DNA of 18,236 nt from a virus (taxonomy: Duplodnaviria > Heunggongvirae > Uroviricota > Caudoviricetes), in the IMG/VR virus record IMGVR_UViG_2695420732_000030, positions 1-18,236 of that record; one strand, given 5' to 3'. Both the position numbers and the translations under genes were made by a program. Every line of letters begins with the position of its first letter. The first letter of the stretch is position 1. A model generated the notes under the pieces. The model was not told the origin of the DNA and did no database searches. It was given only the letters and a program-made list of their open reading frames with translations. Of the stretch, positions 1,237 to 14,968 are shown piece by piece.

Positions 1237-1237
1237 A

Positions 1238-1453
1238 TCATGAGTCTTTGATAAACTGATTTATCTTTGGATAGTTGTACCAGATAATCCCTCGTTTGCT
1301 GTCTGGCTTACCTAAAGGAGATACTCGTTTGAAGTGGAAGCCCTCCACCCAACAGTTCTGGCGGTATGCTTCAATTTGTCTGGCCCCCAGACCAGTGCGA
1401 AGCATCAGGCCGTATTCAACCATCCACTCTTCATTAAAGATTACTTGTGCCAT
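1238..1453 (-). CDS. xisR: Excisionase-like protein (YdaQ/XisR-like), 71 aa
   Basis: Track ORF 1238..1477 trimmed to the internal ATG at 1453, which has a GAGGTGA Shine-Dalgarno 5 nt upstream; product [23 protein letters not shown]... sits immediately upstream of int in the same operon. Confidence 0.72.
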
Positions 1454-1552
1454 CGCATCACCTCTGGCAGGCGCCAATGTTAGACTGAAATTGACGCCCG
1501 ATGTTGATTATTAATAATCAGCTATGAAGTTTTAATTTGAATACAATGCAAT

Positions 1553-1741
1553 TCACGAGGACTGAAGTTTCTCGCAATTAAAATTTATCAGTTTTACTTT
1601 CTGCTCTCTGGAAACGCCTGCTTCTTTTTTACCTGAGAGCATTTTTTCGCATTCTGATTTCGTTAGTTTAGATTTTGAATATCTTGTCCAGTTAGTAGGA
1701 GTGCCACCTTCCTTTTCAATAGTGGCGGTAATTTTATACAT
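1553..1741 (-). CDS. ydaC: Small phage protein, YdaC-like (DUF1187-like), 62 aa from the SD-supported start
   Basis: Track ORF 1553..1813; the internal ATG at 1741 has a perfect GGAGG SD at 5-nt spacing and avoids an 80-nt overlap with ralR. The upstream ATG at 1813 has no SD. Position between xis and ralR as in Rac. Confidence 0.55.
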   Translation of the reverse strand: MYKITATIEKEGGTPTNWTRYSKSKLTKSECEKMLSGKKEAGVSREQKVKLINFNCEKLQSS

Positions 1742-1928
1742 GAACACCTCCGTTATTATTTCCAGTGGTTCGTTTATTCCATCTTTCGAGTGCTTCTTTT
1801 TCACTTCCACCATAACCGGTTCGGGATTCGCATCCGTTACACTTCGCTCGGTAATATCCTGAAATGACTTTCACCGTTACTGATGGACAACCACAAAATG
1901 GACATGGTTTAACATTGTCATATCTCAT
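1734..1928 (-). CDS. ralR: Restriction alleviation protein Lar/RalR, 64 aa
   Basis: Translation MRYDNVKPCPFCGCPSVTVK...RAKCNGCESRTGYGGSEKEALERWNKRTTGNNNGGVHV with CPFCGC/CNGC zinc motif, as recalled for Rac RalR; track ORF trimmed to the ATG at 1928. Confidence 0.8.
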   Translation of the reverse strand: MRYDNVKPCPFCGCPSVTVKVISGYYRAKCNGCESRTGYGGSEKEALERWNKRTTGNNNGGVHV

Positions 1929-1984
1929 AATTTTTCTCATAAAAAATATTTCAAGTTGGCGGTGCATTACACCGCCAGGCTGAA

Positions 1985-2794
1985 TTATTCCTCTGAATTA
2001 TCGATTACACTGTATTCCCCGGTTAATACAGAGGAATCTGCAGGATCGATTGTCAGTGGTTCCTTTTCATCCATTGATACTGCACGCTGGATCTCAATTG
2101 ATACGGGCAGATATTTGAACAGGCGACGAATAGCCGTTTTCTTTGCCATTTCTTCCCAGTGAGTTACCCACGGCCCGTTATTACCAGCTTTACTCAGGCT
2201 GCGCACCAGCTCAATCTGTTTGCGCGTCATAACTTCAAACTGAGTACCTCCGTCTTTCAGTCTTGCGACAGCATAGACGTGGGTAACCGGGGCATCTTCG
2301 TTTTCTCCCGGGCGGTGTATTAACTTTTCATCAAGGCCAAATTCGAAGCTAAACTCGTCACCTTCACGGACAACACGGGCTGACAGGCTGGCGATTTGAC
2401 CAGAACGGCGAGCCAGATCAATCATGCCGCGATAGCCAATGATTAGCTGAACGTTCTTTTTACCGCTCTTTTCGTTTTTATTACCAAAAGGCAGTAAATA
2501 TGCATGACCGAGGGCGCTACCTGGCTCAAGTCCGAGCTGTGAACACTGTACGATCGCACTGACAAAACTCATAGTGTCACAGTTTCCTAACGCCGGAACT
2601 TTACTAATTTCTGTGGTGGCGATACGGATCATACGTTCAGCCGTCATATGGCGTGGAAGAGCTGCTGCCAGTTGCTCTTTCATTGCCGGGCTGTTAATCA
2701 CGCACAGCACATCCTTATCGTTAACTGCTGCTGGTGCACGGTTTCCCTGAGTTTTTTGCAGATCGGCTTTTGCGATAGGTGGTTGCTTAATCAT
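1985..2794 (-). CDS. recT: RecT single-strand annealing recombinase, 269 aa
   Basis: Protein from [24 protein letters not shown]... matches RecT as recalled; ATG at 2794 has an AAGGAG SD 8 nt upstream; the start overlaps the recE stop by 8 nt (ATGATTAA), as known for recE-recT. Confidence 0.92.
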
Positions 2795-5459
2795 TTGCAT
2801 ACTCCTTAGCCCAGCGGGGCAGTGATAACGTCTTAATAGCTGGCCATTCATCGGTATTTAGGCAGTCAGCCAGGGTCCGCAGATTGCGGTGATATTCCTG
2901 CTGGCCTGCCAGTTTTGCTTCTTCGCCCATCATGAAAATCTCAACCGGATAACGTCCGCATTCAACAGTTGTGCTGGCAACCAGAAAAACGAAAGTTGGC
3001 TGCACGCCAAACTGTGCTTCATAACCGTCACTGTAGAATGCATCCTGAACGTGATAGCGGTAGTCGTAATAAGCCGTTTTGAATCGTTGAATATCCGCTG
3101 TGGTTTTCACGTCCATGATCCAGTGAAATTCAGGAATAATTTTGTCCGGACGGCACCGACACAAAATTCCTGTTTCCGGATCTTCCCAGTAAATTGATGA
3201 TTCAGCGTGTCCGGCGCTTTCAACAAGCCATTGCCCCAGCGGCAAAGCCATAACGCTTTGATACATGAGTTCAATTTTCCGGCCTTCTTCCGCAGTGATA
3301 ACCGTTTTTCCTGTGCTTGCGCATTCCATCAGAAACGCTTTCTCTTCTTCTTTTCCGGCGGTTGTACGGCGGTTAAATTCAGGTGCTACGATAAAGCGGT
3401 TACTGAATTCTTCCGGTTCAAGTACCCGGCAGTGGAAAGCGGTTCCTAAATCGAGCGTTTTTGTCTTTGTAGTGTCCACGGGGGCATTTTTACGCCACAA
3501 ATACAGTGCCGGAGTATCAGCAATGTCATCGAGCTGAGACTTACTGACACCGGGACCCGCGTGGTAATTCTCATTCGAAATTCCGTAATAAATACCTGGC
3601 TCTATGTCTTCTACGATTACGGGATCTGCGACTTCGCCAGTTTCATCACTGCAATCGCGATGCGGATCGCTGCCAGCATTCTCATTGTGCGGATGTTCAG
3701 CGCCTTCCATTTCCTCCGGATCTTTTTCCTTAGCTTCAACCTGATTCTCTTCACCGAATGTTTCCTGGTATGTTGCGTCGCCCATCACCGCGCCACAATC
3801 AGGGCAGTTGCCGCCACCGCTCTGACCGCAGGCGGTGCAGACTTTTTCCGGTTCCTGTTGCGCTACTGGTTCGGATTGTTTCGTTTCTGGCTCGTTTTGT
3901 AACGCATTTGGGCTGTTTTGTTCCGCTTTTTGGTCGTTCCGTTCCGATTCATGCTGGTTCTGGTTCACAGAATCGCGAGTCTGGATCCCCTTGACCCATT
4001 TCGGATCATTAGGGTCGCTAATCCCCTCAACAAATTCACCACGCGATACAGCAAGTAACTTATCGGCGTCAGGCTGGCTGATATTGGCTGCCTGCATAAT
4101 TTTGTTTACTTCGTCAGCGGTGACTTTTACTTGGTTAGCGGAACTCACCTGCGACTGAGCATCCAGCGACTGCGCGTTCTGGCCATGTTCAGTTGTATCC
4201 GGTTCCATTGTTTCAGTTGTTGCCTGTTCACCTGCCATTGCGTCAGATGGTTGTGGTTTTTCTTCTTCTGTTTCACGCTCAGTAACCACCTCGCGGTTAA
4301 TTTCTTCCAGGATATCTTTTTCCGGTGTATGCCGGGCAGCTGTGAGAGTTTCCTTGCTGGGGTTCTCGTGATCAGTTTCCGTCAAATAGGCGTTGATATA
4401 CCCCTGAAGGCGTCCCGGGTAGTGATAAAATTCAGGGTGTGCGCTTCGGATAAGTGCAAAAATAGCGGCGCGGGAATAGTCCAGAATACCCGGGGTTGCA
4501 CGAAGTGCTGCGGACCATTCTTTGAACGGACTTTCTTTGTTCAGGACTACTTCTTTTGCGCGACGATAAACGCTGCCCGGAATTTCATAAATATTAAAAT
4601 CCATCGGAAGTGTGGCTGCTGCAATCTCCACATCCAGTGTGTCGAGGGTGTGTACTAAATTCGGATTGCGATCGGTTTTGTTCCCACCGCCAGCATTAGC
4701 ACCGGAAGCCGTGCGGGTGATGCGTGAAACACGATTTCCTTTCATCCACTCTTTTGTCAGCAGACCCCGATAAGTGTAGTCAGCGTCCAGGTATGCTTCG
4801 AAAAAAGCAGTTATTAGTCCCAGGTCTGAATTACCAGGATTAGGGAAAACTTTGTCAGTGTCACGAACCAGTTTGTGGAGGTCGCGAATCTCCAGCGAGT
4901 CGAGCAGACTGGTTTTATGCGAAATAGCCAGGGCAGTAACAGCCGGTAGTTCTTCAGCCCGTGCAATGTGTAATGCCTGGAGTTCGTCGCGTGAAACGTG
5001 CGTTACTGGTTTTTCGCTGCCGTGTTGAGCAAGCCAACGAATGGGCAGTTCCTGACCGGAGACAGGCAGAAGCATGCTCTCCTCAATCTCAGTCATGTCT
5101 TCGCCGTTGATGTTGGTATTGTCAGTGCTGGCTGGTTTATCCTGAACAGAGGGTGACGGGGCGATAAATACCATTGTGATGCCATCCTCCCCGCCTTTTT
5201 CGTATCGGTTGCAGAATTCCGTATCAAATACGCCTTCTGGTGGGAGGTCATCAACAACGGGCAAATTGACGCGAACAGGTTTTTTAAAGTCATCTTCATC
5301 GTAGCCAGCATCGTCAATCGCAACAGCACCACGGGAGATGGCAATGGATAATTTTTTCGCTTCAGCCCAGTAAAAACCGCCTTTAATACCGAGACGTTTT
5401 CTTACTTTGTCATTTTTGGCTTCGTAATACAGTGGGAAAACTTGTTTATCGGTGCTCAT
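2787..5459 (-). CDS. recE: Exodeoxyribonuclease VIII (RecE), 890 aa variant
   Basis: C-terminal ~280 aa ([24 protein letters not shown]...[12 protein letters not shown]...) resemble the RecE PD-(D/E)XK nuclease domain; N-terminal and central acidic linker as recalled for RecE but divergent and longer than the K-12 form (recalled as 866 aa); ATG at 5459. Confidence 0.9.
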
Positions 5460-5527
5460 TGTTTTTTAACCTCAACTCAGATTAAAATTATTGCGAGTGA
5501 TGAATAAATGTCCCGGGTTCTTGACTC

Positions 5528-5555
5528 AGGCCTGCGCTGAGTGCAGGCCTTTTTC
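5528..5555 (+). terminator. GC-rich hairpin (AGGCCTGC-N7-GCAGGCCT) followed by TTTTT on the plus strand, between racC and recE
   Basis: Perfect 8-bp stem at 5528-5535/5543-5550 and T-run 5551-5554. The U-tract is on the plus strand only, so it would terminate transcription antisense to the recET operon. Confidence 0.3.
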
Positions 5556-5559
5556 CCAT

Positions 5560-5835
5560 TCAGATTTCGCCTTTTTGTTCCATCTCAATCAGAGTTGCCA
5601 TAATCCTGTCTTTTTTCTCTGCTGGAATATTCTTTATGATGTGCACCATGCACATTTTTTTTACACCTTCGTGAAGTGTTTTAACGTTGCCTGATGGACC
5701 GTCGATATCAACCACGGTGAATGGGGTTTCTTTATTTTCTGTTTTAATCACGTAGCCAATGAGTTTTCCTTCCAGGATAACTTCGTGAACAACGTCATCA
5801 GTAGTAACAACAGTGGCTTCATAACTGGTAATCAT
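5560..5835 (-). CDS. racC: RacC-like protein, 91 aa
   Basis: Translation from MITSYEATVVTTDD... matches RacC as recalled; track ORF trimmed to ATG at 5835 with an AAGGAG SD at 6-nt spacing. Confidence 0.8.
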   Translation of the reverse strand: MITSYEATVVTTDDVVHEVILEGKLIGYVIKTENKETPFTVVDIDGPSGNVKTLHEGVKKMCMVHIIKNIPAEKKDRIMATLIEMEQKGEI

Positions 5836-5909
5836 GTTTTTCTCCTTAATTAAGGTTGAGCGAATCCCTGCCATTGCTGGCATAAATTCAGTTTCGGATA
5901 GTCAGTTAA

Positions 5910-6080
5910 TTAAAGTTCGTGTGCCATCTGGTCTTTTTCGGCACAGATTTCACTACAATATTTTTTCATTTCCGTCGTTGGTATAACTCCACGCATGAAA
6001 TGAAGTGGTCTTGTAATGATTTTGCTTTCTTCAATTTCTTTATTGCAAAGGTGATAAGCACATTTTATTTTCTTAGTCAT
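5910..6080 (-). CDS. ydaE: YdaE-like small Cys-rich (zinc-binding) protein, 56 aa; not in the ORF track
   Basis: Hand translation of the minus strand from ATG 6080: [56 protein letters not shown]. The ATG overlaps the kilR stop (TAATG). Position between racC and kilR as in Rac. Confidence 0.65.
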   Translation of the reverse strand: MTKKIKCAYHLCNKEIEESKIITRPLHFMRGVIPTTEMKKYCSEICAEKDQMAHEL

Positions 6081-6301
6081 TACCATGACTCCGCCTTTAC
6101 AGGTAAACCATCACGACCGAGGAAGACTCTAATCATGCAGTCAGAAATGCATGTTTTTGTAGTCAGGCTACGAATATAAAGTTTTCGCTTTTTAATATTG
6201 TTTGCCGAGGCGATATATGTCCGACCTTCATGAAGAACATAATCGCCAGGAGTCACACACTGACGTGGTATTTCATCAGTTCCGAAGTGATGAGCAATCA
6301 T
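6080..6301 (-). CDS. kilR: KilR, FtsZ-targeting cell-division inhibitor of Rac, 73 aa
   Basis: Translation [46 protein letters not shown]... matches KilR as recalled; ATG at 6301 has a GGAG SD 7 nt upstream; track ORF trimmed by 4 codons. Confidence 0.8.
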
Positions 6302-6465
6302 AATTATCTCCATTTTTACAAATGAATTTTGTCGATGCGGTGCCTGGTGCCTCCAGGTGACGTTAACCAGTTAACAATTAACGCCGGATAATCCACCCAT
6401 AACACTGATGCTTTTAACTGTGCCGCGTGCGCTTAGCCGCATTCACCGCATCACAAAATTCACTT

Positions 6466-6512
6466 TAAAAAGGCGGACATCAGTCGAACTTCAAGAAAAA
6501 ACTGATGCCGCC
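6466..6512 (-). terminator. Candidate intrinsic terminator on the minus strand (12-bp interrupted stem, then UUUUUAAAG)
   Basis: GGCGGaCATCAGT (6472-6484) pairs with ACTGATGCCGCC (6501-6512) around a 16-nt loop; on the minus strand the T-run corresponds to A 6467-6471. Lies ~180 nt downstream of the minus ORF ending at 6692 and upstream of kilR. Confidence 0.35.
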
Positions 6513-6691
6513 AAGACTACACACAGCAGTGTTGTTAGTCACAACCGGAGGCGCACTCCCACCATTTAAATTTAACAGACAAGACCGACTCTTTATGGAT
6601 ATCGGAAATGCGCCTTCGTGTTGTGCCCGGTTTTATTTCACCACCTCCGGGCTTCGGTGGTTTTCGTTATTCCCCAACAGCGAAAATTAGG

Positions 6692-7042
6692 TTAATCTGA
6701 ATATCCCCCAACAGATGGAAGGATTTTTCTATGCTCGAAAATCAGACCTTGAAGGTTGCCTGCCCTGATTGCGGCAGTGAGATGCTCAAGCGGCCCGATG
6801 ATTTTGACTTTGACACTAATTTCGTTGGCGTTAGTTGTGCCGAATGTGGTCGAGAAATCACTAAGGACGATGTTATTAAGCAAGGAAAAAATGTAGTTCA
6901 GAAACAAGTCAATGACATGCTCCGGAACACCCTCAAAGGCAGCGGGTGGAAGTTTAAATAACCCATGTATCGCACTAAAGTGTTCCGTTACTTCTGTAGC
7001 GTCTATGGTAAGTTTGATAGGCGCTATTTTCACTCCCGTCAT
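6692..7042 (-). CDS. Hypothetical protein, 116 aa, at the position where K-12 Rac carries sieB; fully antisense-overlaps the plus ORF 6731..6961
   Basis: ATG at 7042 with GAGGTGA SD 5-6 nt upstream; near-consensus sigma70 promoter ~70 nt upstream on the same strand (7119-7147); candidate terminator downstream (6466-6512). No recognisable family. Confidence 0.42.
   Translation of the reverse strand: MTGVKIAPIKLTIDATEVTEHFSAIHGLFKLPPAAFEGVPEHVIDLFLNYIFSLLNNIVLSDFSTTFGTTNANEISVKVKIIGPLEHLTAAIRAGNLQGLIFEHRKILPSVGGYSD
6731..6961 (+). CDS. Hypothetical zinc-ribbon protein, 76 aa (CPDCG-x22-CAECG)
   Basis: ATG at 6731 with AAGGA SD; two CxxC pairs 22 residues apart; about 70% purine at codon position 1. 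Lies entirely inside the antisense ORF 6692..7042, so one of the two may be a shadow frame. Confidence 0.45.
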   Translation: MLENQTLKVACPDCGSEMLKRPDDFDFDTNFVGVSCAECGREITKDDVIKQGKNVVQKQVNDMLRNTLKGSGWKFK

Positions 7043-7118
7043 ACATCACCTCAAATCTTTTCCCTTAACGCCGGGTGGCGGAACTAAAACCTACAGCGCC
7101 GTGCTGTTCTCGATAGAA

Positions 7119-7147
7119 ATATTAGTGACACGTATATTTTAAGTCAA
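7119..7147 (-). promoter_or_regulatory. Near-consensus sigma70 promoter on the minus strand: -35 TTGACT, 17-bp spacer, -10 TAATAT (PL-like position)
   Basis: Reverse complement of 7119-7147 reads TTGACT-N17-TAATAT; sits between the repressor-gene terminator and the 116-aa minus ORF, pointing toward the kilR-recET-int operon. Confidence 0.5.
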
Positions 7148-7243
7148 CAGCAAGGCGTATTATATTTTTGATTTTGTAACTATGTAAATGTTTTTCAAGG
7201 GAAAAATATTAGTTATACAGCTGATTTGCAGAAGTTATGGCAC

Positions 7244-7277
7244 AAAAAAAACCGACTAAGACGTCGGTTTTTTTTTG
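7244..7277. terminator. Bidirectional intrinsic terminator (A8-CCGAC-loop-GTCGG-T9)
   Basis: AAAAAAAACCGACtaagacGTCGGTTTTTTTTT; 25 nt downstream of the repressor stop (7303) on the minus strand and downstream of the 6731..6961 plus ORF. Confidence 0.7.
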
Positions 7278-7302
7278 TTGTGGGTGGGGTAGTGAGCGGT
7301 GG

Positions 7303-7764
7303 CTACTGGTTACGTTTCTTTAGTGCCAGCATGTTCTCGAAGGCTTCCTCGTAGAGCTTGTTTAGTCCACGTAGCTGGTTAAGGAGTTTGGCTTTTTCTG
7401 ACGCAGGTAGAATCTCGAAGAGGTTAAGTAACTCTGCCTGTTCTTCATTGACCAGCCTCCATCCTTTGCCTGAAAAGCTATCATCATAAGTATCTGATGA
7501 TCTTACATAATTCATTAAGTCTTTAAGGTCTTCTCGAATGTCCTCTGGTTTTACCTTTAACAGAGCCGCAAATTTTAGCGCAGCGTCGGTATTTACCGGT
7601 ATCTTGCCGTTCAGATACTGGCTAACGGTGCCTTGAGATTCGAATCCCAACAACTCAGCCGCCAACTCTTGAGTCAGCTTCAGCTCTTTTTTTCTTGCAT
7701 TCCATGCGGCTTTTAAATTCTTGCTCGCTTCTGGAGTTGCAATCACTTCGCGTGTTTTTTTCAT
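7303..7764 (-). CDS. Prophage repressor, HTH XRE/cI-type (RacR-like), 153 aa, no S24 peptidase domain
   Basis: HTH motif LTQELAAELLGFESQGTVSQYLNGK; divergently transcribed from a Cro-like gene; the acidic/helical C-terminal half lacks the Ser-Lys autocleavage module. Confidence 0.8.
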   Translation of the reverse strand: MKKTREVIATPEASKNLKAAWNARKKELKLTQELAAELLGFESQGTVSQYLNGKIPVNTDAALKFAALLKVKPEDIREDLKDLMNYVRSSDTYDDSFSGKGWRLVNEEQAELLNLFEILPASEKAKLLNQLRGLNKLYEEAFENMLALKKRNQ

Positions 7765-7800
7765 ACATAGAGTTTATTTGTTTTACCAATATTATCAAAG

Positions 7801-7841
7801 ATAGTCTGACTATTGATCTTTAAAATTAGTAGGGCTAATAT
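7801..7841 (+). promoter_or_regulatory. PR-like promoter (-35 TTGATC 7813-7818, 17-bp spacer, -10 TAATAT 7836-7841) overlapped by the perfect palindrome ATAGTCTGACTAT (7801-7813), a candidate operator
   Basis: Read directly from the sequence in the 107-bp divergent intergenic region between the repressor and Cro-like genes. Confidence 0.5.
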
Positions 7842-7871
7842 TTGCTCGAGGCATAACGTAGAAGGTTGGCT

Positions 7872-8147
7872 ATGAACTTAAGAGACTATTTAAAAGAGAA
7901 ACATATCACCCAGCTACAGTTTGGGAAGCTAACGGGTTTATCTCAGGTGCATGTAAGTCGAGTGCTGGGGGGCTATGAAAGATTCAGCCCTGAAAAAGCA
8001 TTACGTGTTGCTGAAGTAACGAATTTCGAGGTTACACCTCATGAACTCCGGCCTGATATCTACCCGAATCCAACCGACGGTTTACCTGTTGGATGTAAGG
8101 CTAACACACAAAATACACAGGAGTTGATTCATGAAAATCAGGCATGA
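7872..8147 (+). CDS. Cro/YdaS-like HTH DNA-binding protein, 91 aa
   Basis: HTH ITQLQFGKLTGLSQVHVSRVLGG; ATG at 7872 with AAGG SD (track start 7866 is a TTG); first gene rightward of the repressor; its stop overlaps the next gene's start (ATGA). Confidence 0.7.
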   Translation: MNLRDYLKEKHITQLQFGKLTGLSQVHVSRVLGGYERFSPEKALRVAEVTNFEVTPHELRPDIYPNPTDGLPVGCKANTQNTQELIHENQA

Positions 8148-8553
8148 GCACATCGAATCGGTGCTGTTAGCCCTGGCAGCTGAAAAAGGGCAGGCATGGG
8201 TAGCCAGTGCAATTACTGAAGAATATCTGCGCCAGGGAGGCGGCGAATTGCCCCTGGTACCAGGCAAGGACTGGAATAATCAGCAGAACATCTATCACCG
8301 TTGGTTAAAAGGTGAAACGAAAGCGCAAAGGGAAAAAATTCAGAAACTGATCCCTGCGGTTCTGGCAATTCTTCCGCGCGAGCTGCGTCACCGACTCTGC
8401 ATCTTCGATACCCTGGAACGCCGTGCATTACTGGCGGCGCAGGAAGCGTTGAGTACGGCAATTGATGCGCATGATGATGCAGTCCAGGCCGTTTACCGGA
8501 AAGCACATTTCAGCGGTGGTGGGTCGCCCGGCGATTCTGTCGTAGTGCATTGA
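8131..8553 (+). CDS. ydaT: YdaT-like protein (toxic when derepressed in Rac), 140 aa
   Basis: 140 aa starting MKIRHEHIESVLLALAAEKGQ..., same length and position as Rac YdaT as recalled; AGGAG SD at 7-nt spacing. Confidence 0.65.
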   Translation: MKIRHEHIESVLLALAAEKGQAWVASAITEEYLRQGGGELPLVPGKDWNNQQNIYHRWLKGETKAQREKIQKLIPAVLAILPRELRHRLCIFDTLERRALLAAQEALSTAIDAHDDAVQAVYRKAHFSGGGSPGDSVVVH

Positions 8554-8597
8554 TTGAAATTAATCGTGCCGGATTGTTTTGTTCGGTATCAGTTAAA

Positions 8598-8618
8598 TGT
8601 AACGCTGCGAGCGTTACA
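8598..8618. repeat. Palindrome TGTAACGCT-GCG-AGCGTTACA, copy 1 of 3, 13 nt upstream of the O-like gene start
   Basis: Perfect inverted repeat read directly; the same half-site TGTAACGC/GCGTTACA recurs at 8790-8810 and 8998-9016. Confidence 0.6.
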
Positions 8619-8630
8619 AGGTGAAAACAA

Positions 8631-9425
8631 ATGGCTTCAAACTGGATAAAGCTCGAGGTTATTACGCCGGATAAGCCGGAAATATTCAGGCTTGCTGAGA
8701 TTCTGAATATTGATCCAGATGCCGCATTAGGGAAGGTTATTCGCTTCTGGGCATGGGCGGATCAACAAATGATAGACGGTAATGCAGATTGTAACGCTCG
8801 CGGCGTTACAAAAAGTGCAATAGATCGCATCACTTTTATGGCTGGTTTTGCTGATGCGTTAATTCAGGTTGGATGGCTGGTCGAAAATGACGGTGGGCTT
8901 TCTCTACCTAACTTTGAACGTCATAACGGGAAAAGCTCTAAAAAACGGGCGGTTACAAACGAGCGAGTTACAAAAATACGCGAACTGAAACGAAAAGGTA
9001 ACGCTGGCAGCGTTACACAAACGGATCAAAAAGCGTTACCAGAGGAAGAGGAAGAGGAAGAGGAAGATATAAATACTGATCTCCCCCTAAATCCCCCTCG
9101 CCAAAAACGAGCGTCTAAAAAATTCGAGCCGGAGGCTATCGAGCTACCTGACTGGTTGCCGGAAACACTCTGGCATGAGTGGGTTCAGTTCAGGCAGGCA
9201 TTGCGAAAACCGATTCGAACGGAGCAGGGCGCTAACGGGGCGATACGGGAACTGGAAAAATTCCGTCAGCAGGGTTTTACACCTGAGCAGGTGATTCGAC
9301 ACAGCATCGCCAATGAATACCAGGGCTTGTTCGTACCGAAAGGTGTTCGGCATGAGACGTTGCTCCGACAGGTTAACACCGTCTCGTTGCCGGACAGTGC
9401 GATCCCGCCAGGCTTCAGGGGGTAA
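8631..9425 (+). CDS. ydaU: Replication initiation O-like / YdaU-like protein (DUF1376-like), 264 aa, with internal poly-Glu
   Basis: Position immediately upstream of the DnaC-like gene; AAGGTGA SD; palindromic repeats embedded in the coding sequence, as for ori within lambda O; the (GAGGAA)4 tract at 9042-9065 encodes the poly-Glu run. Confidence 0.7.
   Translation: MASNWIKLEVITPDKPEIFRLAEILNIDPDAALGKVIRFWAWADQQMIDGNADCNARGVTKSAIDRITFMAGFADALIQVGWLVENDGGLSLPNFERHNGKSSKKRAVTNERVTKIRELKRKGNAGSVTQTDQKALPEEEEEEEEDINTDLPLNPPRQKRASKKFEPEAIELPDWLPETLWHEWVQFRQALRKPIRTEQGANGAIRELEKFRQQGFTPEQVIRHSIANEYQGLFVPKGVRHETLLRQVNTVSLPDSAIPPGFRG
8790..8810. repeat. Palindrome TGTAACGC-TCGCG-GCGTTACA, copy 2, inside the O-like CDS
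   Basis: Perfect 8-bp arms with a 5-bp spacer; direct GTTACAAA repeats follow at 8952-8959 and 8967-8974. Confidence 0.6.
8998..9016. repeat. Palindrome GTAACGC-TGGCA-GCGTTAC, copy 3, inside the O-like CDS; extra half-site GCGTTAC at 9033-9039
   Basis: Read directly; same half-site as copies 1 and 2, at ~200-bp spacing. Confidence 0.55.
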
Positions 9426-9431
9426 CAGACC

Positions 9432-10172
9432 ATGAAAAATATTGCGACAGGCGGCGTTCTGGAGCGTATCCGCAGACTGACCCCACCACATGTAACCGCC
9501 CCATTCAGAACGGTTGCGGAGTGGCGTGAGTGGCAACTTACTGAAGGCCAGAAACGTTGCGAGGAGATCAACCGTCTGAATCGTCAGTTGCGGGTGGAAA
9601 AAATTCTGAATCGCTCTGGCATCCAGCCGTTGCACCGTAAATGCTCGTTTGCGAATTACCAGGTGCAGAACGACGGCCAGCGATACGCGTTAAGCCAGGC
9701 GAAATCCATCGCCGATGAACTGATGACCGGGTATACAAATTTTGCGTTCAGCGGAAAACCTGGTACCGGGAAGAATCACTTAGCGGCAGCTATCGGGAAT
9801 CGCCTGTTGAAAGACGGTCAGACAGTGATTGTGGTTACCGTGGCTGATGTTATGAGCGCCCTGCACGCCAGCTATGACGACGGGCAGTCAGGCGAAAAAT
9901 TTTTGCGTGAACTGTGCGAAGTGGACCTCCTGGTTCTTGACGAAATTGGCATCCAGCGTGAGACGAAAAACGAGCAGGTGGTACTGCACCAGATTGTTGA
10001 CCGCCGGACGGCATCACTGCGCAGTGTCGGGATGCTGACAAACCTGAATCATGCCGCAATGAGCACGCTTCTTGGTGAGAGGATTATGGACCGGATGACC
10101 ATGAACGGTGGTCGTTGGGTGAATTTTAACTGGGAGAGCTGGCGGTCAAACGTTGGACGTCAGGGTATGTGA
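9432..10172 (+). CDS. ydaV: DnaC/IstB-like AAA+ helicase loader (YdaV-like replication protein P analogue), 246 aa
   Basis: Walker A GKPGTGKNHLAAAIG and Walker B DLLVLDEIG; start 7 nt after the O-like stop. Confidence 0.85.
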   Translation: MKNIATGGVLERIRRLTPPHVTAPFRTVAEWREWQLTEGQKRCEEINRLNRQLRVEKILNRSGIQPLHRKCSFANYQVQNDGQRYALSQAKSIADELMTGYTNFAFSGKPGTGKNHLAAAIGNRLLKDGQTVIVVTVADVMSALHASYDDGQSGEKFLRELCEVDLLVLDEIGIQRETKNEQVVLHQIVDRRTASLRSVGMLTNLNHAAMSTLLGERIMDRMTMNGGRWVNFNWESWRSNVGRQGM

Positions 10173-10197
10173 GAATTTTTAACGAGGTGAATTTTCG

Positions 10198-10968
10198 ATG
10201 GAAACCGTATTACATGCACTGAAAGCGATGGGAAAAGCCAATTCTGTTGAACTGGCGGCACGAATTGATATCAGCCGTGAAGAAGTTATCAACGAACTGT
10301 GGGAGCTCAAAAAAAATGGCGTTGTTGATAAAACGGGTCACACCTGGTTTCTGGCTGTCGAAGGTGAATCCCGGGTAACCGAAGAGCGGCCAGTAAAATC
10401 TGAAACACAGGATATGCTGACCGAAGAGGTCGCTCCAAAAGTTAGCGCTAACATGATGATTGAGTTTATCGCTCAGGAGGGGGCTAAAACCTGTGAAGAA
10501 ATAGCGGGTAAGTTCGGTGTCAGTACTCGCAAGGTTGCTTCCACGCTGGCGGTGGTAACCGCAACGGGGCGGCTGGCACGCGTTAATCAGAACGGTAGAT
10601 TTCGTTACTGCATGCCGGGCGATAATTTACCAGCAGAGCCGAAAGCCGCGCTGGTAACGGAAAGTGATGGTAAGGCCTTTCCTCAGCCAGCAGGTGCTGC
10701 GTTACCAGTCCGGGAAGCCGCAACACAGGAAGAAATTAAAACAGAAACTGTGGCGGACATTGTGCAGCCGTTGCCATCGTTTACCGAAACGCAAGCAGAT
10801 GAGCTGATTTTTCCGTCCCTTCGCAGGGCAAACCTGGCGCTGCGCAGGGCGAAAAGTGATGTTCAGAAGTGGGAGCGAGTCTGCGCCGCGCTGCGGGAGC
10901 TGAACAAGCACCGGGATATTGTTCGGCAGATTGTCGATTCATCCGGTCGTATTGTGTCGGAAAAGTGA
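10198..10968 (+). CDS. Hypothetical phage protein (YdaW/DUF1627-like), 256 aa
   Basis: GAGGTGA SD 7 nt upstream of ATG; position after the DnaC-like gene as in Rac; family assignment is by recollection only. Confidence 0.6.
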   Translation: METVLHALKAMGKANSVELAARIDISREEVINELWELKKNGVVDKTGHTWFLAVEGESRVTEERPVKSETQDMLTEEVAPKVSANMMIEFIAQEGAKTCEEIAGKFGVSTRKVASTLAVVTATGRLARVNQNGRFRYCMPGDNLPAEPKAALVTESDGKAFPQPAGAALPVREAATQEEIKTETVADIVQPLPSFTETQADELIFPSLRRANLALRRAKSDVQKWERVCAALRELNKHRDIVRQIVDSSGRIVSEK

Positions 10969-10983
10969 TTGCCGGAGGCGCTT

Positions 10984-11376
10984 ATGGCAAAAGTATTTAC
11001 ACCAGAAGAGCGGGAAGAAGTGAGGGCGCGCATTGTGGAATTCGTGCGCCTGAGCGGACGAGAAACTTTTCGACAACTGGCAGATAAAACGGGTGTCAGT
11101 AAGACCGCTATTCGTCGTTTATCTGGTGCGCTTGCGGCCAGTGGTGATGTCTGGCTCTCTGGTTGCGGGGTATTTCTATCAGAGCAGGCGTATCGCGTAT
11201 GGCGTAAGACACCGGAGAAGGCTGCTGACCCGACACTGATTCGAAAGTTACCTGACGGAGAAATACGTCGTTACAACAGACGGCAGAACATAATTTGTCG
11301 TGAGTGCCGCCAGAGCGAAGTTATGCAGCGTGTGCTGGCGTTCTATCGGGGTAATTTTCAGGAGGTGATGGAGTGA
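10984..11376 (+). CDS. Hypothetical protein, 130 aa, with CRECRQ motif
   Basis: ATG at 10984 with GGAGG SD at 5-nt spacing (track start 10969 is a TTG); stop overlaps the next start (GTGA). Confidence 0.6.
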   Translation: MAKVFTPEEREEVRARIVEFVRLSGRETFRQLADKTGVSKTAIRRLSGALAASGDVWLSGCGVFLSEQAYRVWRKTPEKAADPTLIRKLPDGEIRRYNRRQNIICRECRQSEVMQRVLAFYRGNFQEVME

Positions 11377-11669
11377 GGGTGAGGGTTTATATCGCCGGTC
11401 CGATGACCGGGTATAAAAATTTCAACCGTGAGGCGTTCCACAAGGCGGAAGAGGAACTGAAACGGGAAGGGCATACAGTCTTAAACCCGGCAGTACTTCC
11501 GGACGGGCTGACACAGCCGCACTACATGGATATTTGCATGGCAATGATTCGTTGCGTGGATGCGATTTACATGCTGAATGGCTGGCAGCGGTCAGCGGGC
11601 GCTAAGGCAGAGCTGGCACTGGCGGAGAAACTGGGACATACGGTGATTTATCAGGAGGTGGCTCAATGA
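11373..11669 (+). CDS. DUF4406 / nucleoside 2-deoxyribosyltransferase-like small protein, 98 aa
   Basis: N-terminal VYIAGPMTG motif typical of this fold; GTG start with GGAGG SD at 7 nt; stop overlaps the next ATG (ATGA). Confidence 0.6.
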   Translation: MRVRVYIAGPMTGYKNFNREAFHKAEEELKREGHTVLNPAVLPDGLTQPHYMDICMAMIRCVDAIYMLNGWQRSAGAKAELALAEKLGHTVIYQEVAQ

Positions 11670-12385
11670 GAGAGGTTAACTATGAGGCGCTTCGTGAAGC
11701 AGCAGAGAAAGCAACTAAAGGATGCTACATCGTAGGGCATACATCGGGCAATCAGCATGGGAATATAACAGGAGTTTTTGTTTGTCAAAAATGGAAAGGA
11801 GAACCCGGTGGCGTAATTGCAGAATGTCATGTTAACTGCCTGGTTGAAACAGATGCTCAGGCTTACGCAAACGCTGAATTTATTGCTGCCTTTAATCCAA
11901 ATGTTGCGCTGGCACTACTGGATGAACGGGAAAGAAACCAGCAATACATCAAATCACGCGACCAGGAGAACGAGGAGATTGCGCTTACGGAAGGGAAGCT
12001 GCTAATCGAAAACGGCCGGCTTGTTGCCGATACGCTACGCCACTTAGCTGATAACGAAATCGACTCTGATTATTTTGCTATCACCTCAACGAATGAGAAC
12101 GGTACTGAAATTGATCATGAGATGGCTATTACCGATTACGCACTGCAAGCTGCCGGAACTGTAGACGAATTGGTTGCGGCGTTGGAATCCGCAGAGAAGC
12201 GCATTGCAGAACTGGAAGCACGGGAAATATCGCTCCCAGAACGTAGCAGCATGCTTCATCGAACAGATTTTCACGATGATTACCAAACGGTAATGGCATA
12301 CAAAGTTTCTGAAGTCATCGCTGCAATCCGCGCCGCTGGCATTCGCATCAAAGGAGAGGAGCATGGAAATAAAACCAGAAGATGA
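11666..12385 (+). CDS. Hypothetical phage protein, 239 aa (possibly Ea22-like, acidic coiled-coil C-terminus)
   Basis: ATG overlapping the upstream stop; no motif confidently recognised. Confidence 0.6.
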   Translation: MREVNYEALREAAEKATKGCYIVGHTSGNQHGNITGVFVCQKWKGEPGGVIAECHVNCLVETDAQAYANAEFIAAFNPNVALALLDERERNQQYIKSRDQENEEIALTEGKLLIENGRLVADTLRHLADNEIDSDYFAITSTNENGTEIDHEMAITDYALQAAGTVDELVAALESAEKRIAELEAREISLPERSSMLHRTDFHDDYQTVMAYKVSEVIAAIRAAGIRIKGEEHGNKTRR

Positions 12386-12719
12386 GTTAAGCAATATCGT
12401 TTTATTTCCGGTAAAAGAGGATGACCCACGTAATCAGGTTAATTTTCTCTATGAGCCATCGGAAAGACCATATTGCCATCACGCCTCTGTCCGGGTTGAC
12501 GAAAAAGAGCGTCAGGTCCGCTGTAAAATCTGCGGTGCAGTTGTGGAGCCATTTGACTGGATGCTCTCTGTGGCGAAAAGAGAAACCAGACTGGCAGATG
12601 ATGTAAGGATCTTGCGCCAGGAGGAACGGGAAAGGCGGAGAAATATAGAAAAGCTAATTCAGATTGAGCGTAACGTGAAAGCGCGGATACGCAGGGTGAC
12701 AAAATCCAGAACTGAATAA
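12363..12719 (+). CDS. Hypothetical protein, 118 aa, with CHH...CKIC cluster and Arg-rich coiled-coil tail
   Basis: ATG at 12363 with AGGAGAGGAG SD; overlaps the upstream gene by 23 nt. Confidence 0.55.
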   Translation: MEIKPEDELSNIVLFPVKEDDPRNQVNFLYEPSERPYCHHASVRVDEKERQVRCKICGAVVEPFDWMLSVAKRETRLADDVRILRQEERERRRNIEKLIQIERNVKARIRRVTKSRTE

Positions 12720-12767
12720 TTAAATTTAGCTCTGTTAAAAATTTAATCCTTAACCGGAGGTATATCA

Positions 12768-12980
12768 ATGTCAAACGCACAGAAAGTTATTAACGCTGAA
12801 AAATATAACGAGTGGGTGAAAAAGTTCTCAGAGCAGATTTTTAAAATTACTGGCGACGAGAATGCGGCAAAAAATGAATTAGAGCCGTGGACACCTGAAG
12901 GTGTCGACCCAAATTATTGCTGGTGGGATGTTGATCCAGTTGATGCTGCAAATGAAGCTATGAGTTATCACAACGATTAA
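12768..12980 (+). CDS. Hypothetical small acidic protein, 70 aa
   Basis: GGAGG SD 8 nt upstream of ATG 12768. Confidence 0.55.
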   Translation: MSNAQKVINAEKYNEWVKKFSEQIFKITGDENAAKNELEPWTPEGVDPNYCWWDVDPVDAANEAMSYHND

Positions 12981-13180
12981 TGTCAGGAGGCCGCCCGAAA
13001 GGGCGGTAATGAAAAGTGACTGAATTAACCAAAGAGAAATTAATCGAAGAAGCCAAATTAAAAATAGCGATTGCGAAATGCTACCCCAATTCAGGGATGG
13101 CACGGGTATAGGGCGAGTTATTCAAAATTGCACTGGCATAGCTGGAAGCAGATCCAGTTAAACGAGTTAACTCAGATCAG

Positions 13181-13894
13181 ATGCACCGAGTCTGCTTAGA
13201 AGCTAATCGCTATTTAGATAAATATGACGCGATGGCGAAAGAGGTAAATAAGTTGCTTGGACGCATCGCCCCGCCAGCGCCAGTATTTAACGGCGAATAC
13301 GGTGACGCATATCAGGGCGCTCGTGAAGACCTGTCCATCTGGAAACGGCGAGCGCTTGAAGCTGATGAGCACGTTCGGCGACTGGAGCAAATCAATGACC
13401 ACATGGTGAAAGAGGCGCAGGGAGAATCACGCATGGGCGAGCCTGTAATACGTGAGCCAGCACCGGTAGTGCCTGAAGAAGCAACTCCGGAAAACGTAGA
13501 AATGCTCTCTGGCTATGTTTCAACGTACAAATTAACCGATAGCGAGCGCGATATTGCTGCCGAAATATGGAACGCCTGCCGCGCCGCCATGCTTCAGGCT
13601 GGAAACTTTCGGGAAAATAAGGGTTCGTCAACCAATAATTTTCGGGAAATCTCGGAAACGTCAACCAACTATCCGGTAACTCCGGATGGTTGGATAAGCT
13701 GTAGTGAGCGAATGCCGGATGATGGTCAGCACGTAATTATTTTATGTGATGGCGCATTCGTTCTTTATGCGCAATATCGAGACGGTGAGTTTTTTGATGT
13801 AGTCCGTAATGGTGATGAATTTTTCGAAACACAGAGCCGCAATGTAACCGACTGGATGCCGCTACCAGAACCGCCGCAGGAGGTGCGCCAATGA
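13181..13894 (+). CDS. Phage protein with C-terminal DUF551-like domain, 237 aa
   Basis: C-terminus WISCSERMPDDGQHVIIL...VTDWMPLPEPP resembles the DUF551 signature as recalled; weak SD. Confidence 0.6.
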   Translation: MHRVCLEANRYLDKYDAMAKEVNKLLGRIAPPAPVFNGEYGDAYQGAREDLSIWKRRALEADEHVRRLEQINDHMVKEAQGESRMGEPVIREPAPVVPEEATPENVEMLSGYVSTYKLTDSERDIAAEIWNACRAAMLQAGNFRENKGSSTNNFREISETSTNYPVTPDGWISCSERMPDDGQHVIILCDGAFVLYAQYRDGEFFDVVRNGDEFFETQSRNVTDWMPLPEPPQEVRQ

Positions 13895-13974
13895 TCTGGC
13901 CTGAAGCCTTTGCAATTACAGGCGTTGCTATAGCTATTGATTTTTTAGTATATGTTATTTGTCGGTGGGGGTAA
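13891..13974 (+). CDS. Tiny hydrophobic peptide, 27 aa (MIWPEAFAITGVAIAIDFLVYVICRWG), candidate membrane peptide; not in ORF track
   Basis: GGAGG SD 7 nt upstream; ATG overlaps the upstream stop (ATGA), suggesting translational coupling; single hydrophobic helix. Confidence 0.4.
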   Translation: MIWPEAFAITGVAIAIDFLVYVICRWG

Positions 13975-14009
13975 AAACGTTCGCCGGGATTCACACCAAA
14001 GGAGGGAAT

Positions 14010-14114
14010 ATGTCGGATGATATTTCACTGGCAATGGAAGGTGCGCTGGCTGTTATTGCTGTTGTGGGCGTTTACTGCCTGGTTGTGTTTTTGATGGATC
14101 GACTAGGGAACTGA
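14010..14114 (+). CDS. Tiny hydrophobic peptide, 34 aa (MSDDISLAMEGALAVIAVVGVYCLVVFLMDRLGN); not in ORF track
   Basis: GGAGGG SD 4 nt upstream of ATG 14010; single predicted transmembrane helix. Confidence 0.4.
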   Translation: MSDDISLAMEGALAVIAVVGVYCLVVFLMDRLGN

Positions 14115-14122
14115 ATTCATTA

Positions 14123-14144
14123 CGATATGGGAATTCCCATATCG
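14123..14144. repeat. Perfect 22-bp palindrome CGATATGGGAATTCCCATATCG
   Basis: Exact two-fold symmetry centred on GAATTC, 9 nt after the second small-peptide stop and upstream of the putative hok promoter. Confidence 0.6.
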
Positions 14145-14156
14145 GGTAAAAACGGT

Positions 14157-14184
14157 TTGCGGTAAAGCGAGAGTTAAGTAGAAT
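14157..14184 (+). promoter_or_regulatory. Candidate hok mRNA promoter (-35 TTGCGG, 16-bp spacer, -10 TAGAAT)
   Basis: Places the TSS near 14191, giving a ~420-nt transcript ending at the 14584-14610 terminator. The 5' end GGGTGCTTGAGG (14191-14202) is complementary to 14566-14577 near the 3' end, as in hok fold-back mRNAs. Confidence 0.35.
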
Positions 14185-14359
14185 TGCTGCGGGTGCTTGA
14201 GGCTATCTGTCTCGGGCATGAACACCAACGGCAGATAGAGAAAAGCCCCAGTTAACATTACGCGTCCGGCAAGACGCTTAACATTAATCTGAGGCCATAT
14301 CTATGCTCTACATACGTAGGTTAGCCTCTTACGTGCCGAAAGGCAAGGAGAAGCAGGCT

Positions 14360-14515
14360 ATGAAGCAGCAAAAGGCGATGCTAATCGCCCTGATCGTCAT
14401 CTGTTTAACCGTCATTGTGACGGCACTGGTAACGAGGAAAGACCTCTGCGAGGTACGAATCCGAACCGGCCAGACGGAGGTCACTGTCTTCACAGCTTAC
14501 GAACCTGAGGAGTAA
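14360..14515 (+). CDS. Hok/Gef-family type I toxin, 51 aa
   Basis: MKQQKAMLIALIVICLTVIVTALVTRKDLCEVRIRTGQTEVTVFTAYEPEE shows the Hok signature (TM helix, RKxLCE, AYE); AAGGAG SD; track ORF 14303..14515 trimmed to ATG 14360. Confidence 0.8.
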   Translation: MKQQKAMLIALIVICLTVIVTALVTRKDLCEVRIRTGQTEVTVFTAYEPEE

Positions 14516-14583
14516 GAGACCAGGCGAGGGAGAAATCCCTCGCCACCTCTCATGTGTCAGGCATCTTCAACGCACCCGCACTT

Positions 14584-14610
14584 AACCCGCTTCGGCGGGT
14601 TTTTGTTTTT
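14584..14610 (+). terminator. Intrinsic terminator after hok (AACCCGC-TTCG-GCGGGTT then TTTTGTTTTT)
   Basis: GC stem with TTCG tetraloop and T-run, read directly. Confidence 0.75.
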
Positions 14611-14735
14611 ATTTTCAATACGTTTGAAGTTATGGACGATGCCGGAATAGAATCAAAAATACTTAAGTAGCGCGCAGGGAGAAGAGGGATGGACCCCGAA
14701 CAGGGGGGTGCTATTTATCTGGAAGGATTCTGTTG

Positions 14736-14909
14736 ATGAAAATTGAAGAATTACGTGAAATTTTTAGTGAAAATGGCCTCTTTGCTGTGCGCGTTGAGAA
14801 TGGGGAAGTTATCTACGCAACGTTAATCCCTGATAATCATGTAATTTTATCTATCGAGGCATTCATTGAATATCTTGAAAGGCTCGGTTTCAAGGTGATT
14901 CGGGAATGA
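14736..14909 (+). CDS. Hypothetical small protein, 57 aa (MKIEELREIFSENGLFAVRVENGEVIYATLIPDNHVILSIEAFIEYLERLGFKVIRE); not in ORF track
   Basis: GGAAGGA SD 8 nt upstream of ATG 14736; hand-translated. Confidence 0.4.
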   Translation: MKIEELREIFSENGLFAVRVENGEVIYATLIPDNHVILSIEAFIEYLERLGFKVIRE

Positions 14910-14968
14910 GTTATAATTCGTAAGCCAGCCTGAACAACTGGCAACCTACAGCGCCATTGGAGACAGCA

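Follow-up and report, generated by a model that had tools for sequence, protein, structure and literature searches.

What lies between an Ea22-like gene and the hok/sok toxin module in a prophage of Shiga-toxigenic Escherichia coli (STEC), and does any of it work together with the toxin? We examined this question for positions 13891-14162 of an 18,236-nucleotide stretch of viral DNA (IMG/VR record IMGVR_UViG_2695420732_000030, positions 1 to 18,236; hereafter the window). An earlier note, made from the letters alone, had pointed out in this interval two tandem single-helix micro-peptides with ribosome-binding sites, a perfect 22-bp palindrome and a repeated 11-bp motif. All of these features were found where the note had placed them, the second peptide having an exact span of 14010-14114. 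The window is a lambdoid prophage of STEC, and the 701 nt around the interval share 99.7-100% identity with numerous chromosomes of O157:H7 and O145. Our analysis suggests that the interval is probably a mosaic joint within the nin-type early region, running from an Ea22/DUF551-type gene to a hok/sok module of the hokW/hokD type, and that it holds two genuine micro-protein genes, here called pep1 and pep2, together with two sequence relics. As a whole the locus is ordinary prophage mosaicism that adds two new members to the large class of small membrane proteins. The one surprise is that the palindrome is conserved at the nucleotide level within KilA-N genes.

Two micro-protein genes upstream of hok

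The first open reading frame (ORF), pep1 (MIWPEAFAITGVAIAIDFLVYVICRWG; 13891-13974, plus strand), encodes 27 amino acids. Its ATG (13891-13893) overlaps the TGA (13892-13894) of the DUF551-domain gene in an ATGA arrangement, and its TAA lies at 13972-13974. A GGAGG at 13879-13883, 7 nt upstream of the start, sits in the last codons of the DUF551 gene (CAG GAG GTG). A pattern scan confirmed by tblastn identified 462 relatives in IMG/VR, and tblastn found relatives in 92 GenBank phage records, whose phages include Shiga toxin (Stx) phages, other lambdoids, the P1-like SJ46 and 813R1, myoviruses of 120-134 kb and siphoviruses of 37 kb. Members of the family are 24-29 residues long and share the consensus M-x-W-P-E/D-A-F-(apolar helix)-I-C-R-W-G-stop. 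Among 30 distinct nucleotide variants of 27 codons, the ratio of nonsynonymous to synonymous polymorphism (pN/pS) was 0.30 in the ORF frame versus 0.87 and 1.65 in the shifted frames, and variable sites were distributed 13/11/24 over the three codon positions. Internal stops were found in none of the 30, while the other frames carry stops, and the length variation includes a 6-nt in-frame deletion in one lineage. The mirror antisense frame also has a low pN/pS (0.41), which is to be expected where wobble positions coincide, and it lacks the start, Shine-Dalgarno and coupling features.

The arrangement at the pep1 start is also conserved. The ATGA overlap with the upstream stop is kept in all but 3 of approximately 220 pep1 loci, with GGAGG, GGAGGA or a similar sequence 7-10 nt upstream of the start, and it stands behind more than 20 distinct upstream C-termini, among them those of the DUF551 type (...PEPPQEV.Q), those ending ...GLISAEDVLR and those of the L0139 zinc-ribbon type. 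Retention of the overlap behind such varied C-termini is a signature of translational coupling. Judged by its conserved stop-start overlap and internal Shine-Dalgarno sequence, pep1 is a translationally coupled gene, and the start-stop coupling that the earlier note had described at the DUF551 gene is seen in more than 20 different upstream contexts. Ribosomes that finish the Ea22-like gene would make pep1 by coupling or re-initiation. The sequence downstream of pep1 differs from locus to locus and may be pep2, the hok promoter directly, an intrinsic terminator or unrelated sequence; pep1 is therefore an autonomous unit attached to Ea22-like genes. It often, though not always, adjoins hok, and many phages carry pep1 without hok. 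On this comparative evidence pep1 is a real, widespread gene under purifying selection.

It is also essentially undescribed. GenBank has the exact pep1 sequence only where a few submitters annotated it, as a "hypothetical protein", the Prokaryotic Genome Annotation Pipeline (PGAP) leaves it uncalled, and we found no published account of pep1, including by a literature search on WPEAF. With hundreds of copies missed by standard annotation, pep1 illustrates a kind of very small gene that would be expressed only via upstream coupling. Apparent DUF551-pep1 fusions were considered as Rosetta-stone evidence and rejected, as the 121-residue proteins that share the cluster of pep1 do not contain its sequence and reflect a clustering artefact. 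In Shigella phage POCJ13 (locus L003, 1512-1595), codon 3 of pep1 is changed from TGG to TAG, making it a pseudogene there, and the POCJ13 record annotates two minus-strand "hypothetical proteins" over the pep1 stretch (1517-1784) that are probably spurious mirror-frame calls.

The second ORF, pep2 (MSDDISLAMEGALAVIAVVGVYCLVVFLMDRLGN; 14010-14114, plus strand), encodes 34 amino acids and has its own GGAGG at 14001-14005, 4 nt before the ATG. It is identical to RefSeq WP_001278450.1 and to ECs_5710 in the Sakai prophage Sp6. It has 344 relatives in IMG/VR and is restricted to Escherichia/Shigella prophages. In every IMG/VR and GenBank locus examined, the distance from the pep2 stop to the tac box of the hok mRNA is 76-78 nt with the palindrome between, or 44 nt without it. 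The 44-nt form belongs to a divergent clade of 29-30 residues (MLVLKCALAITAVMAIYCLAIVLMDRLSD, with a GTG start and AGGAGG) with approximately 50% identity to pep2, present in phages mEp460_ev081, Tritos and HannyBb. These divergent members have neither pep1 nor a DUF551 gene upstream, yet they directly adjoin the hok promoter. The two clades share A-L-A-x-x-A-V-x-x-x-Y-C-L-x-x-x-L-M-D-R-L, and their differences are mostly synonymous. In GTDB, with one genome per species, five pep2 loci were found, all of Escherichia/Shigella type, and hok lies directly downstream in four of the five. The pN/pS of pep2 is 0.43 in the ORF frame versus 0.60 and 1.53 in the shifted frames, and only the ORF frame is free of stops. 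Divergent copies of both pep1 and pep2 (50-60% amino acid identity) keep start, stop, Shine-Dalgarno sequence, frame and length, and third-position changes dominate among them. The conservation check that the earlier note had called for was thus run, and it upholds both reading frames and their Shine-Dalgarno sequences. By these comparisons pep2 is likewise a real gene under purifying selection, and it is tied to hok.

Ribosome profiling, another check the earlier note had named, is already on record for pep2. Huecker et al. 2017 (PMC5597208) reported it as XECs145, a small intergenic gene that is translated in E. coli O157:H7 Sakai, predicted to be an inner-membrane protein and classed as "real". 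In lysogeny broth (LB) its values were 79.1 reads per kilobase per million (RPKM) for RNA and 346.1 RPKM for RIBOseq, giving a ribosome coverage value (RCV) of 4.35 with footprints over 99% of its length (coverage 0.99); in brain heart infusion (BHI) they were 121.3 and 150.1 RPKM, with an RCV of 1.14 and a coverage of 0.84 (PMC5597208). All 34 residues of pep2 are identical in the Sakai protein, which occupies the same place upstream of mok/hok in the lambda-like prophage Sp6. The published gene is drawn 20 codons longer at its 5' end, into pep1, and is given no function, hok linkage or family analysis (PMC5597208). The published study of hokW (PMC8621323) neither annotates nor discusses the ORFs upstream of hok, and both pep1 and pep2 are absent from the lists in the Enterobacteriaceae microproteome supplements. 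Databases and one ribosome-profiling catalogue therefore already list pep2, though uncharacterized, but its strict link to hok appears to have gone unnoted before.

An origin of pep2 from the antisense strand of a lost KilA-N gene was considered and rejected, as the similarity is not significant (P=0.155). In loci of the mEp460/Tritos type (L009, 1056-1497; L011, 1016-1515; L291-L295), a conserved noncoding stretch of 450-700 nt lies upstream of the pep2-like ORF. It contains a conserved hairpin (GTCCGCTTTGAGCGAGGAGTGGAC, minus strand), and TTGAAT-17-CATATT within it may be the promoter of pep2. Three contigs of this group from metagenome-assembled genomes (L291, L294 and L295), labeled Collinsella, "Candidatus Scatousia" and Haemophilus, carry a near-identical pep2-hok locus of E. 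coli phage type, which is most likely binning contamination.

The pep1-hok junction and its duplication

Immediately downstream of the interval, the hok/sok module (14191-14611, plus strand) comprises the hok mRNA leader with its tac box, mok (14303-14515), hok (14360-14515), the fold-back-inhibition element fbi (approximately 14566-14578) and a terminator (14584-14611). The hok product matches Pfam HOK_GEF (E=5.9e-22) and is RefSeq hokD; the 933W counterpart is annotated as mokW/hokW/sokW. A match to Rfam RF01794, the sok/hok leader, begins at 14191 (107.9 bits), which would be the 5' end of the hok mRNA. The predicted hok promoter, TTGCGG-16-TAGAAT, ends 7 nt before 14191, and its 16-nt spacer and position fit a sigma-70 promoter. 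Its -10 hexamer TAGAAT (14179-14184, plus strand) is part of AGTTAAGTAGAATTGCTGCGGGTGCTTGAGGC, which is conserved in 33 of the 34 different sequences found upstream of hok, and at L009 a homologous promoter, TTGGCG-17-TAGAAT, was called by the promoter scan.

The earlier note had described the 11-bp sequence GGGTAAAAACG as a motif following each element of the interval. It does occur exactly twice in the window, at 13969-13979 and 14144-14154, but this was ruled out as statistically exceptional: the window holds three independent exact local 11-mer repeats, and approximately 1.9 such local pairs are expected per window by chance. The meaning of the repeat therefore comes from homology. The first copy (GGGTAAAAACGTTCGCCGG; 13969-13987, plus strand) consists of the last two codons and stop of pep1, TGG-GGG-TAA (W-G-stop), and AAACG, and it matches the junction of the 933W/L191 type, GGGTAAAAACGGTTTGCGGG; its tail, TTCGCCGG, is a decayed copy of the hok -35 region. 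The second copy (GGGTAAAAACGGTTTGCGG; 14144-14162, plus strand) comprises a relic of the pep1 3' end, an A-tract at about -44 to -38 and the -35 hexamer TTGCGG (14157-14162). In 933W and loci L191-L206, AAACGGTTTGCGGG (also written AAACGGTTTGCGG) comes right after the pep1 stop and is followed by the hok -10, and the L191 junction, ...TGGGGGTAAAAACGGTTTGCGGG, is identical to the second copy and its tail in the window. Since it is identical to the pep1-end/hok-promoter junction of these D-type loci, the second copy is what is left of a pep1 3' end joined onto the hok promoter. In relatives of the window the second copy reads GGGCAAAAACG or GGGCGAAAACG. Across homologues, pep1 endings of GGTTGA, GGATAA, TTATAA or AGATAA are as common as GGGTAA, and GGGTAAAAACG is therefore not conserved as a DNA motif. 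What had been taken for a motif is better described as a duplicated gene-end/promoter junction.

These comparisons suggest a route by which the interval may have been assembled. A pep1/hok junction of the 933W type would have received approximately 165 bp, made up of pep2 and the palindrome, with duplication of approximately 19 bp, so that the two copies of GGGTAAAAACG now flank the insert as duplicated pep1-end/hok-promoter-start junctions. A transposon-type target-site duplication was considered and rejected: the ends of the insert carry no inverted repeats, the pep2 insert is not found at other targets, and the repeat reaches approximately 19 nt with mismatches. Mosaic joints of lambdoid phages carry short conserved boundary, or "linker", sequences. 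As with such linkers, the exact points at which homology between phages begins and ends are marked by the GGGTAAAAACG(G)TT.GC.GG repeat and by the palindrome; recombination at the two is deduced from comparisons. At the first copy, a stem-loop GUCGGUGGGGGU-AAAA-ACGUUCGCCGGG (13962-13989) lies between pep1 and pep2 and has the pep1 stop codon at its loop.

A palindrome shared with KilA-N genes

The palindrome CGATATGGGAATTCCCATATCG (14123-14144) is perfect over 22 bp, as the earlier note had it, and is both conserved and beyond chance: it is the sole site of the window within 3 mismatches, and none of 200 shuffles gave any. As RNA it would form a 9-bp stem with a 4-nt loop. An intrinsic terminator was ruled out, as the hairpin is without a U-tract, is uncalled by the terminator scan and is followed by GGUAAAAACGG. 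A scan of IMG/VR with the 18-nt palindrome core yielded at least 119 loci. The core lies upstream of hok in at least 75 of 122 core-bearing loci (the matches listed, plus the window and earlier loci), and the rest, among the matches listed, mostly lie inside genes for KilA-N-domain proteins.

Inside the KilA-N genes the palindrome is read as the codons C-GAT-ATG-GGA-ATT-CCC-ATA-TCG, encoding D-M-G-I-P-I-S, followed by ...KGG...QGTWVHP. When D-M-G-I-P-I-S-E-L was looked for in a complete scan without codon bias, 77 sites emerged, of which 21 are distinct nucleotide contexts within KilA-N genes (loci with the 22-bp unit are L012, L045, L055, L058, L076, L083, L094, L298, L302, L320 and L377-L405). 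In these 21 contexts the codons of the arms are frozen: Pro is CCC, Ile is ATA and Ser is TCG in all 21, and Asp is GAT in 20. The central 4 nt vary (GGA/GGG, ATT/ATC), and the conserved QGTWVHP motif of the same genes uses three to four codons per residue, with Pro encoded by CCC in only 1 of 21. The constrained unit thus spans exactly the 22 bp seen in the window. This invariance of the arms at synonymous positions suggests that KilA-N genes contain an element kept at the level of DNA or RNA.

From codon identity, extent and synteny we conclude that the palindrome probably originated from a KilA-N gene. In phage vB_EcoS-613R10 the order is an Ea22-like gene, ATGA-coupled pep1, a bidirectional terminator, an antisense KilA-N gene with the palindrome, the hok promoter and hok; this is the order of the window, with a whole KilA-N gene in place of pep2 and the palindrome. 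In hok loci of type C, the 24 nt to the left of the palindrome match antisense KilA-N codons S-E-L-I-Q-S-F-K at 19 of 24 positions, and the flank scores 12-14 versus a null maximum of 9-10, with 0 of 300 shuffles reaching the observed score. The flank similarity of type B hok loci is borderline. The palindrome of the window may accordingly be read as a copy of the KilA-N-gene element and as the remnant of a KilA-N gene that once stood in antisense between pep1 and hok. Unlike in the KilA-N genes, no KilA-N reading frame survives in the window, where stops occur within 1-2 codons on either strand, and the KilA-N residue there amounts to the palindrome and perhaps approximately 17 nt of flank.

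It is possible, though we would put it well behind the relic interpretation, that the palindrome is a functional cis-element at this locus now. It would then be either the site at which a dimeric phage protein, for example one with a KilA-N domain from a co-resident prophage, binds and controls the hok promoter, or a plus-strand RNA hairpin that ends or stabilizes the upstream transcript and insulates the 5' end of hok. The contrast between the invariant arm codons and the varying center and QGTWVHP codons speaks for such an element, as do the noncoding copies upstream of hok, which have at least four different left flanks and two different right flanks. All three asymmetric substitutions seen among the hok-upstream copies preserve pairing as G.U on the plus strand, and the predicted hairpin is present in the minimum-free-energy fold. 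Gifsy-like lambdoid contigs (L301, L308, L318, L324, L334, L338 at approximately 6063-6110, L346 and others) also have a near-identical hairpin, CGATATGGGGATTCCCATATCG, in the noncoding DNA that directly precedes a dinI-like gene, 9 nt before a canonical intrinsic terminator, GGCCTCTTCGGAGGCCTTTTT. However, some variants among the Gifsy-like copies are true mismatches, many hok loci have no palindrome (the 933W and mEp460 types), one has lost an arm and another has a 1-nt bulge. The distance from the palindrome to the hok -35 is inconsistent, at 13 nt in one context versus 37 nt in another, and the missing U-tract excludes an intrinsic terminator. The Roi protein of HK022 reportedly binds a site inside its own gene, but we do not use it as support: the precedent is inapplicable, as the HK022 nin region has neither this palindrome nor any other with arms of at least 8 nt, and Roi is no close relative of the palindrome-bearing KilA-N genes.

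The remnant interpretation is compatible with some retained use. The palindrome may be kept as a hairpin or as a putative binding site centered near -57 of the hok promoter, and from its sequence it may today be a plus-strand RNA hairpin, a dimer-binding site or a recombination linker. No Rfam family was found for the Gifsy-like palindrome-plus-terminator element, the only matches elsewhere in those loci being STnc100 and IsrI, and a literature search on the palindrome found nothing relevant. The frozen arms could shed light on the control of KilA-N regulators, which are common in phages but poorly understood, or on recombination between phage modules. Two false leads are meanwhile removed, namely the GGGTAAAAACG repeat as a motif and an operator made specially for this locus.

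Several observations weigh against the view of the interval as a mosaic junction with two genes and two relics. The left flank of the palindrome in the window itself shows no significant similarity to KilA-N genes (P=0.29), so for this lineage it is synteny and related loci that carry the remnant argument. Both the promoter and the transcription start of hok are derived from conservation and from the start of the Rfam model. With 27 residues, pep1 falls under the 30-residue cut-off of the ribosome-profiling study, and its translation is deduced from its sequence. The pN/pS of pep2 is only moderately below that of one shifted frame (0.43 against 0.60). Most sampled pep2 loci are near-identical, leaving the hok linkage to approximately three divergent lineages, and in one Shigella flexneri locus (L293, 1201-1400), the only such case seen, a pep2-like ORF (…LMERLSD) is intact while hok is absent, unrelated sequence right after the pep2 stop having replaced both the hok promoter and the gene.

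Accessory membrane proteins or toxins

Both pep1 and pep2 contain 18 consecutive apolar residues and would insert as single-pass helices in the inner membrane. Searches of Pfam, NCBIfam and PHROG gave no meaningful match for either, the PHROG matches being weak and of unknown function. Small single-pass inner-membrane proteins such as AcrZ, MgtS and KdpF modulate larger membrane proteins in E. coli. Like this class, pep1 and pep2 have 25-35 residues, one hydrophobic helix and a strong ribosome-binding site, and pep2 is translated in normal growth. Unlike it, they are prophage-borne and share no sequence similarity with its members, so that the comparison is one of analogy only. We infer that pep1 and pep2 are probably non-lethal accessory inner-membrane proteins rather than toxins, and that they may act by modulating another membrane component, for which the insertion of Hok and a host protein are possible candidates. 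In pathogenic E. coli, prophage hok/sok loci are seen as two-part, RNA-controlled toxin modules, and pep2, often together with pep1, is a candidate for an overlooked partner of them.

A more far-reaching proposal can be built on these observations, which we regard as doubtful. The palindrome, C-GATATGGG-nnnn-CCCATATC-G, would be a widespread, undescribed cis-element of enterobacterial and other phages, maintained as a nucleotide sequence within KilA-N genes and put to use again outside coding sequence, both upstream of hok and ahead of terminators beside dinI-like genes. It would be recognized by a factor that is possibly a KilA-N protein and linking antirepressor-type regulators to hok, and pep2 would be a third, protein part of prophage hok modules that tunes the insertion or toxicity of Hok.

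The suggestion of the earlier note, that the small peptides next to hok are additional membrane-active toxins or holin-like modulators, is in our view unlikely in its full form, in which pep1 and pep2 work with Hok, the palindrome serves as an operator for them or for hok, and both copies of GGGTAAAAACG have a common regulatory function. In its favor, each peptide is a short hydrophobic helix adjoining a type I toxin, pep2 is strictly linked to hok, and HokW has been reported to aid phage release (PMC8621323). A minus-strand promoter-like site at 14034-14007 (TTGCCA-16-CATATT) could also start an antisense transcript across the Shine-Dalgarno sequence of pep2 and the 3' end of pep1, which would be of importance if pep2 were a type I toxin, although such matches are within chance expectation, with 5 found versus 3.1 +/- 1.9. 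Neither peptide, however, matches HOK_GEF, to which the neighboring hok belongs, or the NCBIfam Hok models, nor any holin or lysis family. The locus lies between replication genes and the NinB-like DUF1367 gene, outside any lysis cassette. Silent-mRNA control of the Hok type is not apparent, as pep1 is ATGA-coupled, pep2 is efficiently translated, and Rfam finds only the hok leader. The module immediately downstream is the hokW-sokW/hokD type I toxin-antitoxin locus of Stx phages (933W, Sp5), and the 933W pep1 homologue, MTWPEAFANVGTVMAVVLVVYSICRWR, ends at the hok promoter; unlike hokW-sokW, pep1 and pep2 lack Hok/Gef similarity, a mok-like leader or a demonstrated antisense RNA. Furthermore, pep1 shares its translation with an early gene, many phages have it without hok, and the proposed motif is not conserved as DNA. 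The efficient translation of pep2 during exponential growth of uninduced Sakai lysogens (RCV 4.35) argues against a potent toxin. A role as accessory membrane proteins is the better fit to these observations.

That pep1 and pep2 are only frames that happen to be open within a conserved spacer or leader, kept by recent ancestry or by DNA- or RNA-level constraint, is highly improbable: the near-identity of most copies, the low antisense pN/pS of pep1, the lack of a PGAP call for it and the TAG in one phage would all suit such a view, but divergent copies retain their gene features, indels are in frame, the ATGA overlap persists behind unrelated upstream C-termini, footprints with a high RCV cover pep2, and other frames carry stops.

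The surrounding gene order is that of a lambdoid early region. The window begins with an integrase and early-left genes on the minus strand, followed by a repressor/cro/replication block and then by small plus-strand early genes, which include an ead/Ea22-like gene and the DUF551-domain gene (13181-13894). The latter is an Ea22/EaA-like gene on the plus strand with a C-terminal DUF551 domain (Pfam DUF551, E=5e-21; RefSeq DUF551 domain-containing protein). After it come the interval described here, the hok/sok module and the NinB-like DUF1367 gene. RefSeq calls at the locus are the DUF551 gene, the 34-residue "hypothetical protein" WP_001278450.1 and hokD, with the 27-residue ORF left uncalled.

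Some further features were seen nearby. The 3' end of the hok mRNA, with fbi and the terminator (14524-14605), gives a weak Rfam match to IsrK, a small RNA of Salmonella prophages, at 26.5 bits against a gathering score of 50. In some otherwise identical prophages, hok is followed on the opposite strand by a toxin-antitoxin pair of RelE/ParE and helix-turn-helix proteins (L001, 3919-4600); in the window the corresponding region (14620-14950) has a 58-residue PHROG_340 gene instead, marking another mosaic joint right behind the hok terminator. Farther away, an exact 11-mer, TGCTTCTTTTT, recurs 172 nt apart at 1619 and 1791, near the excision region, and a tandem repeat of GAAGAGGAAGAGG (9041-9067) lies within the ORF at 8631-9425, a putative replication gene by its position.

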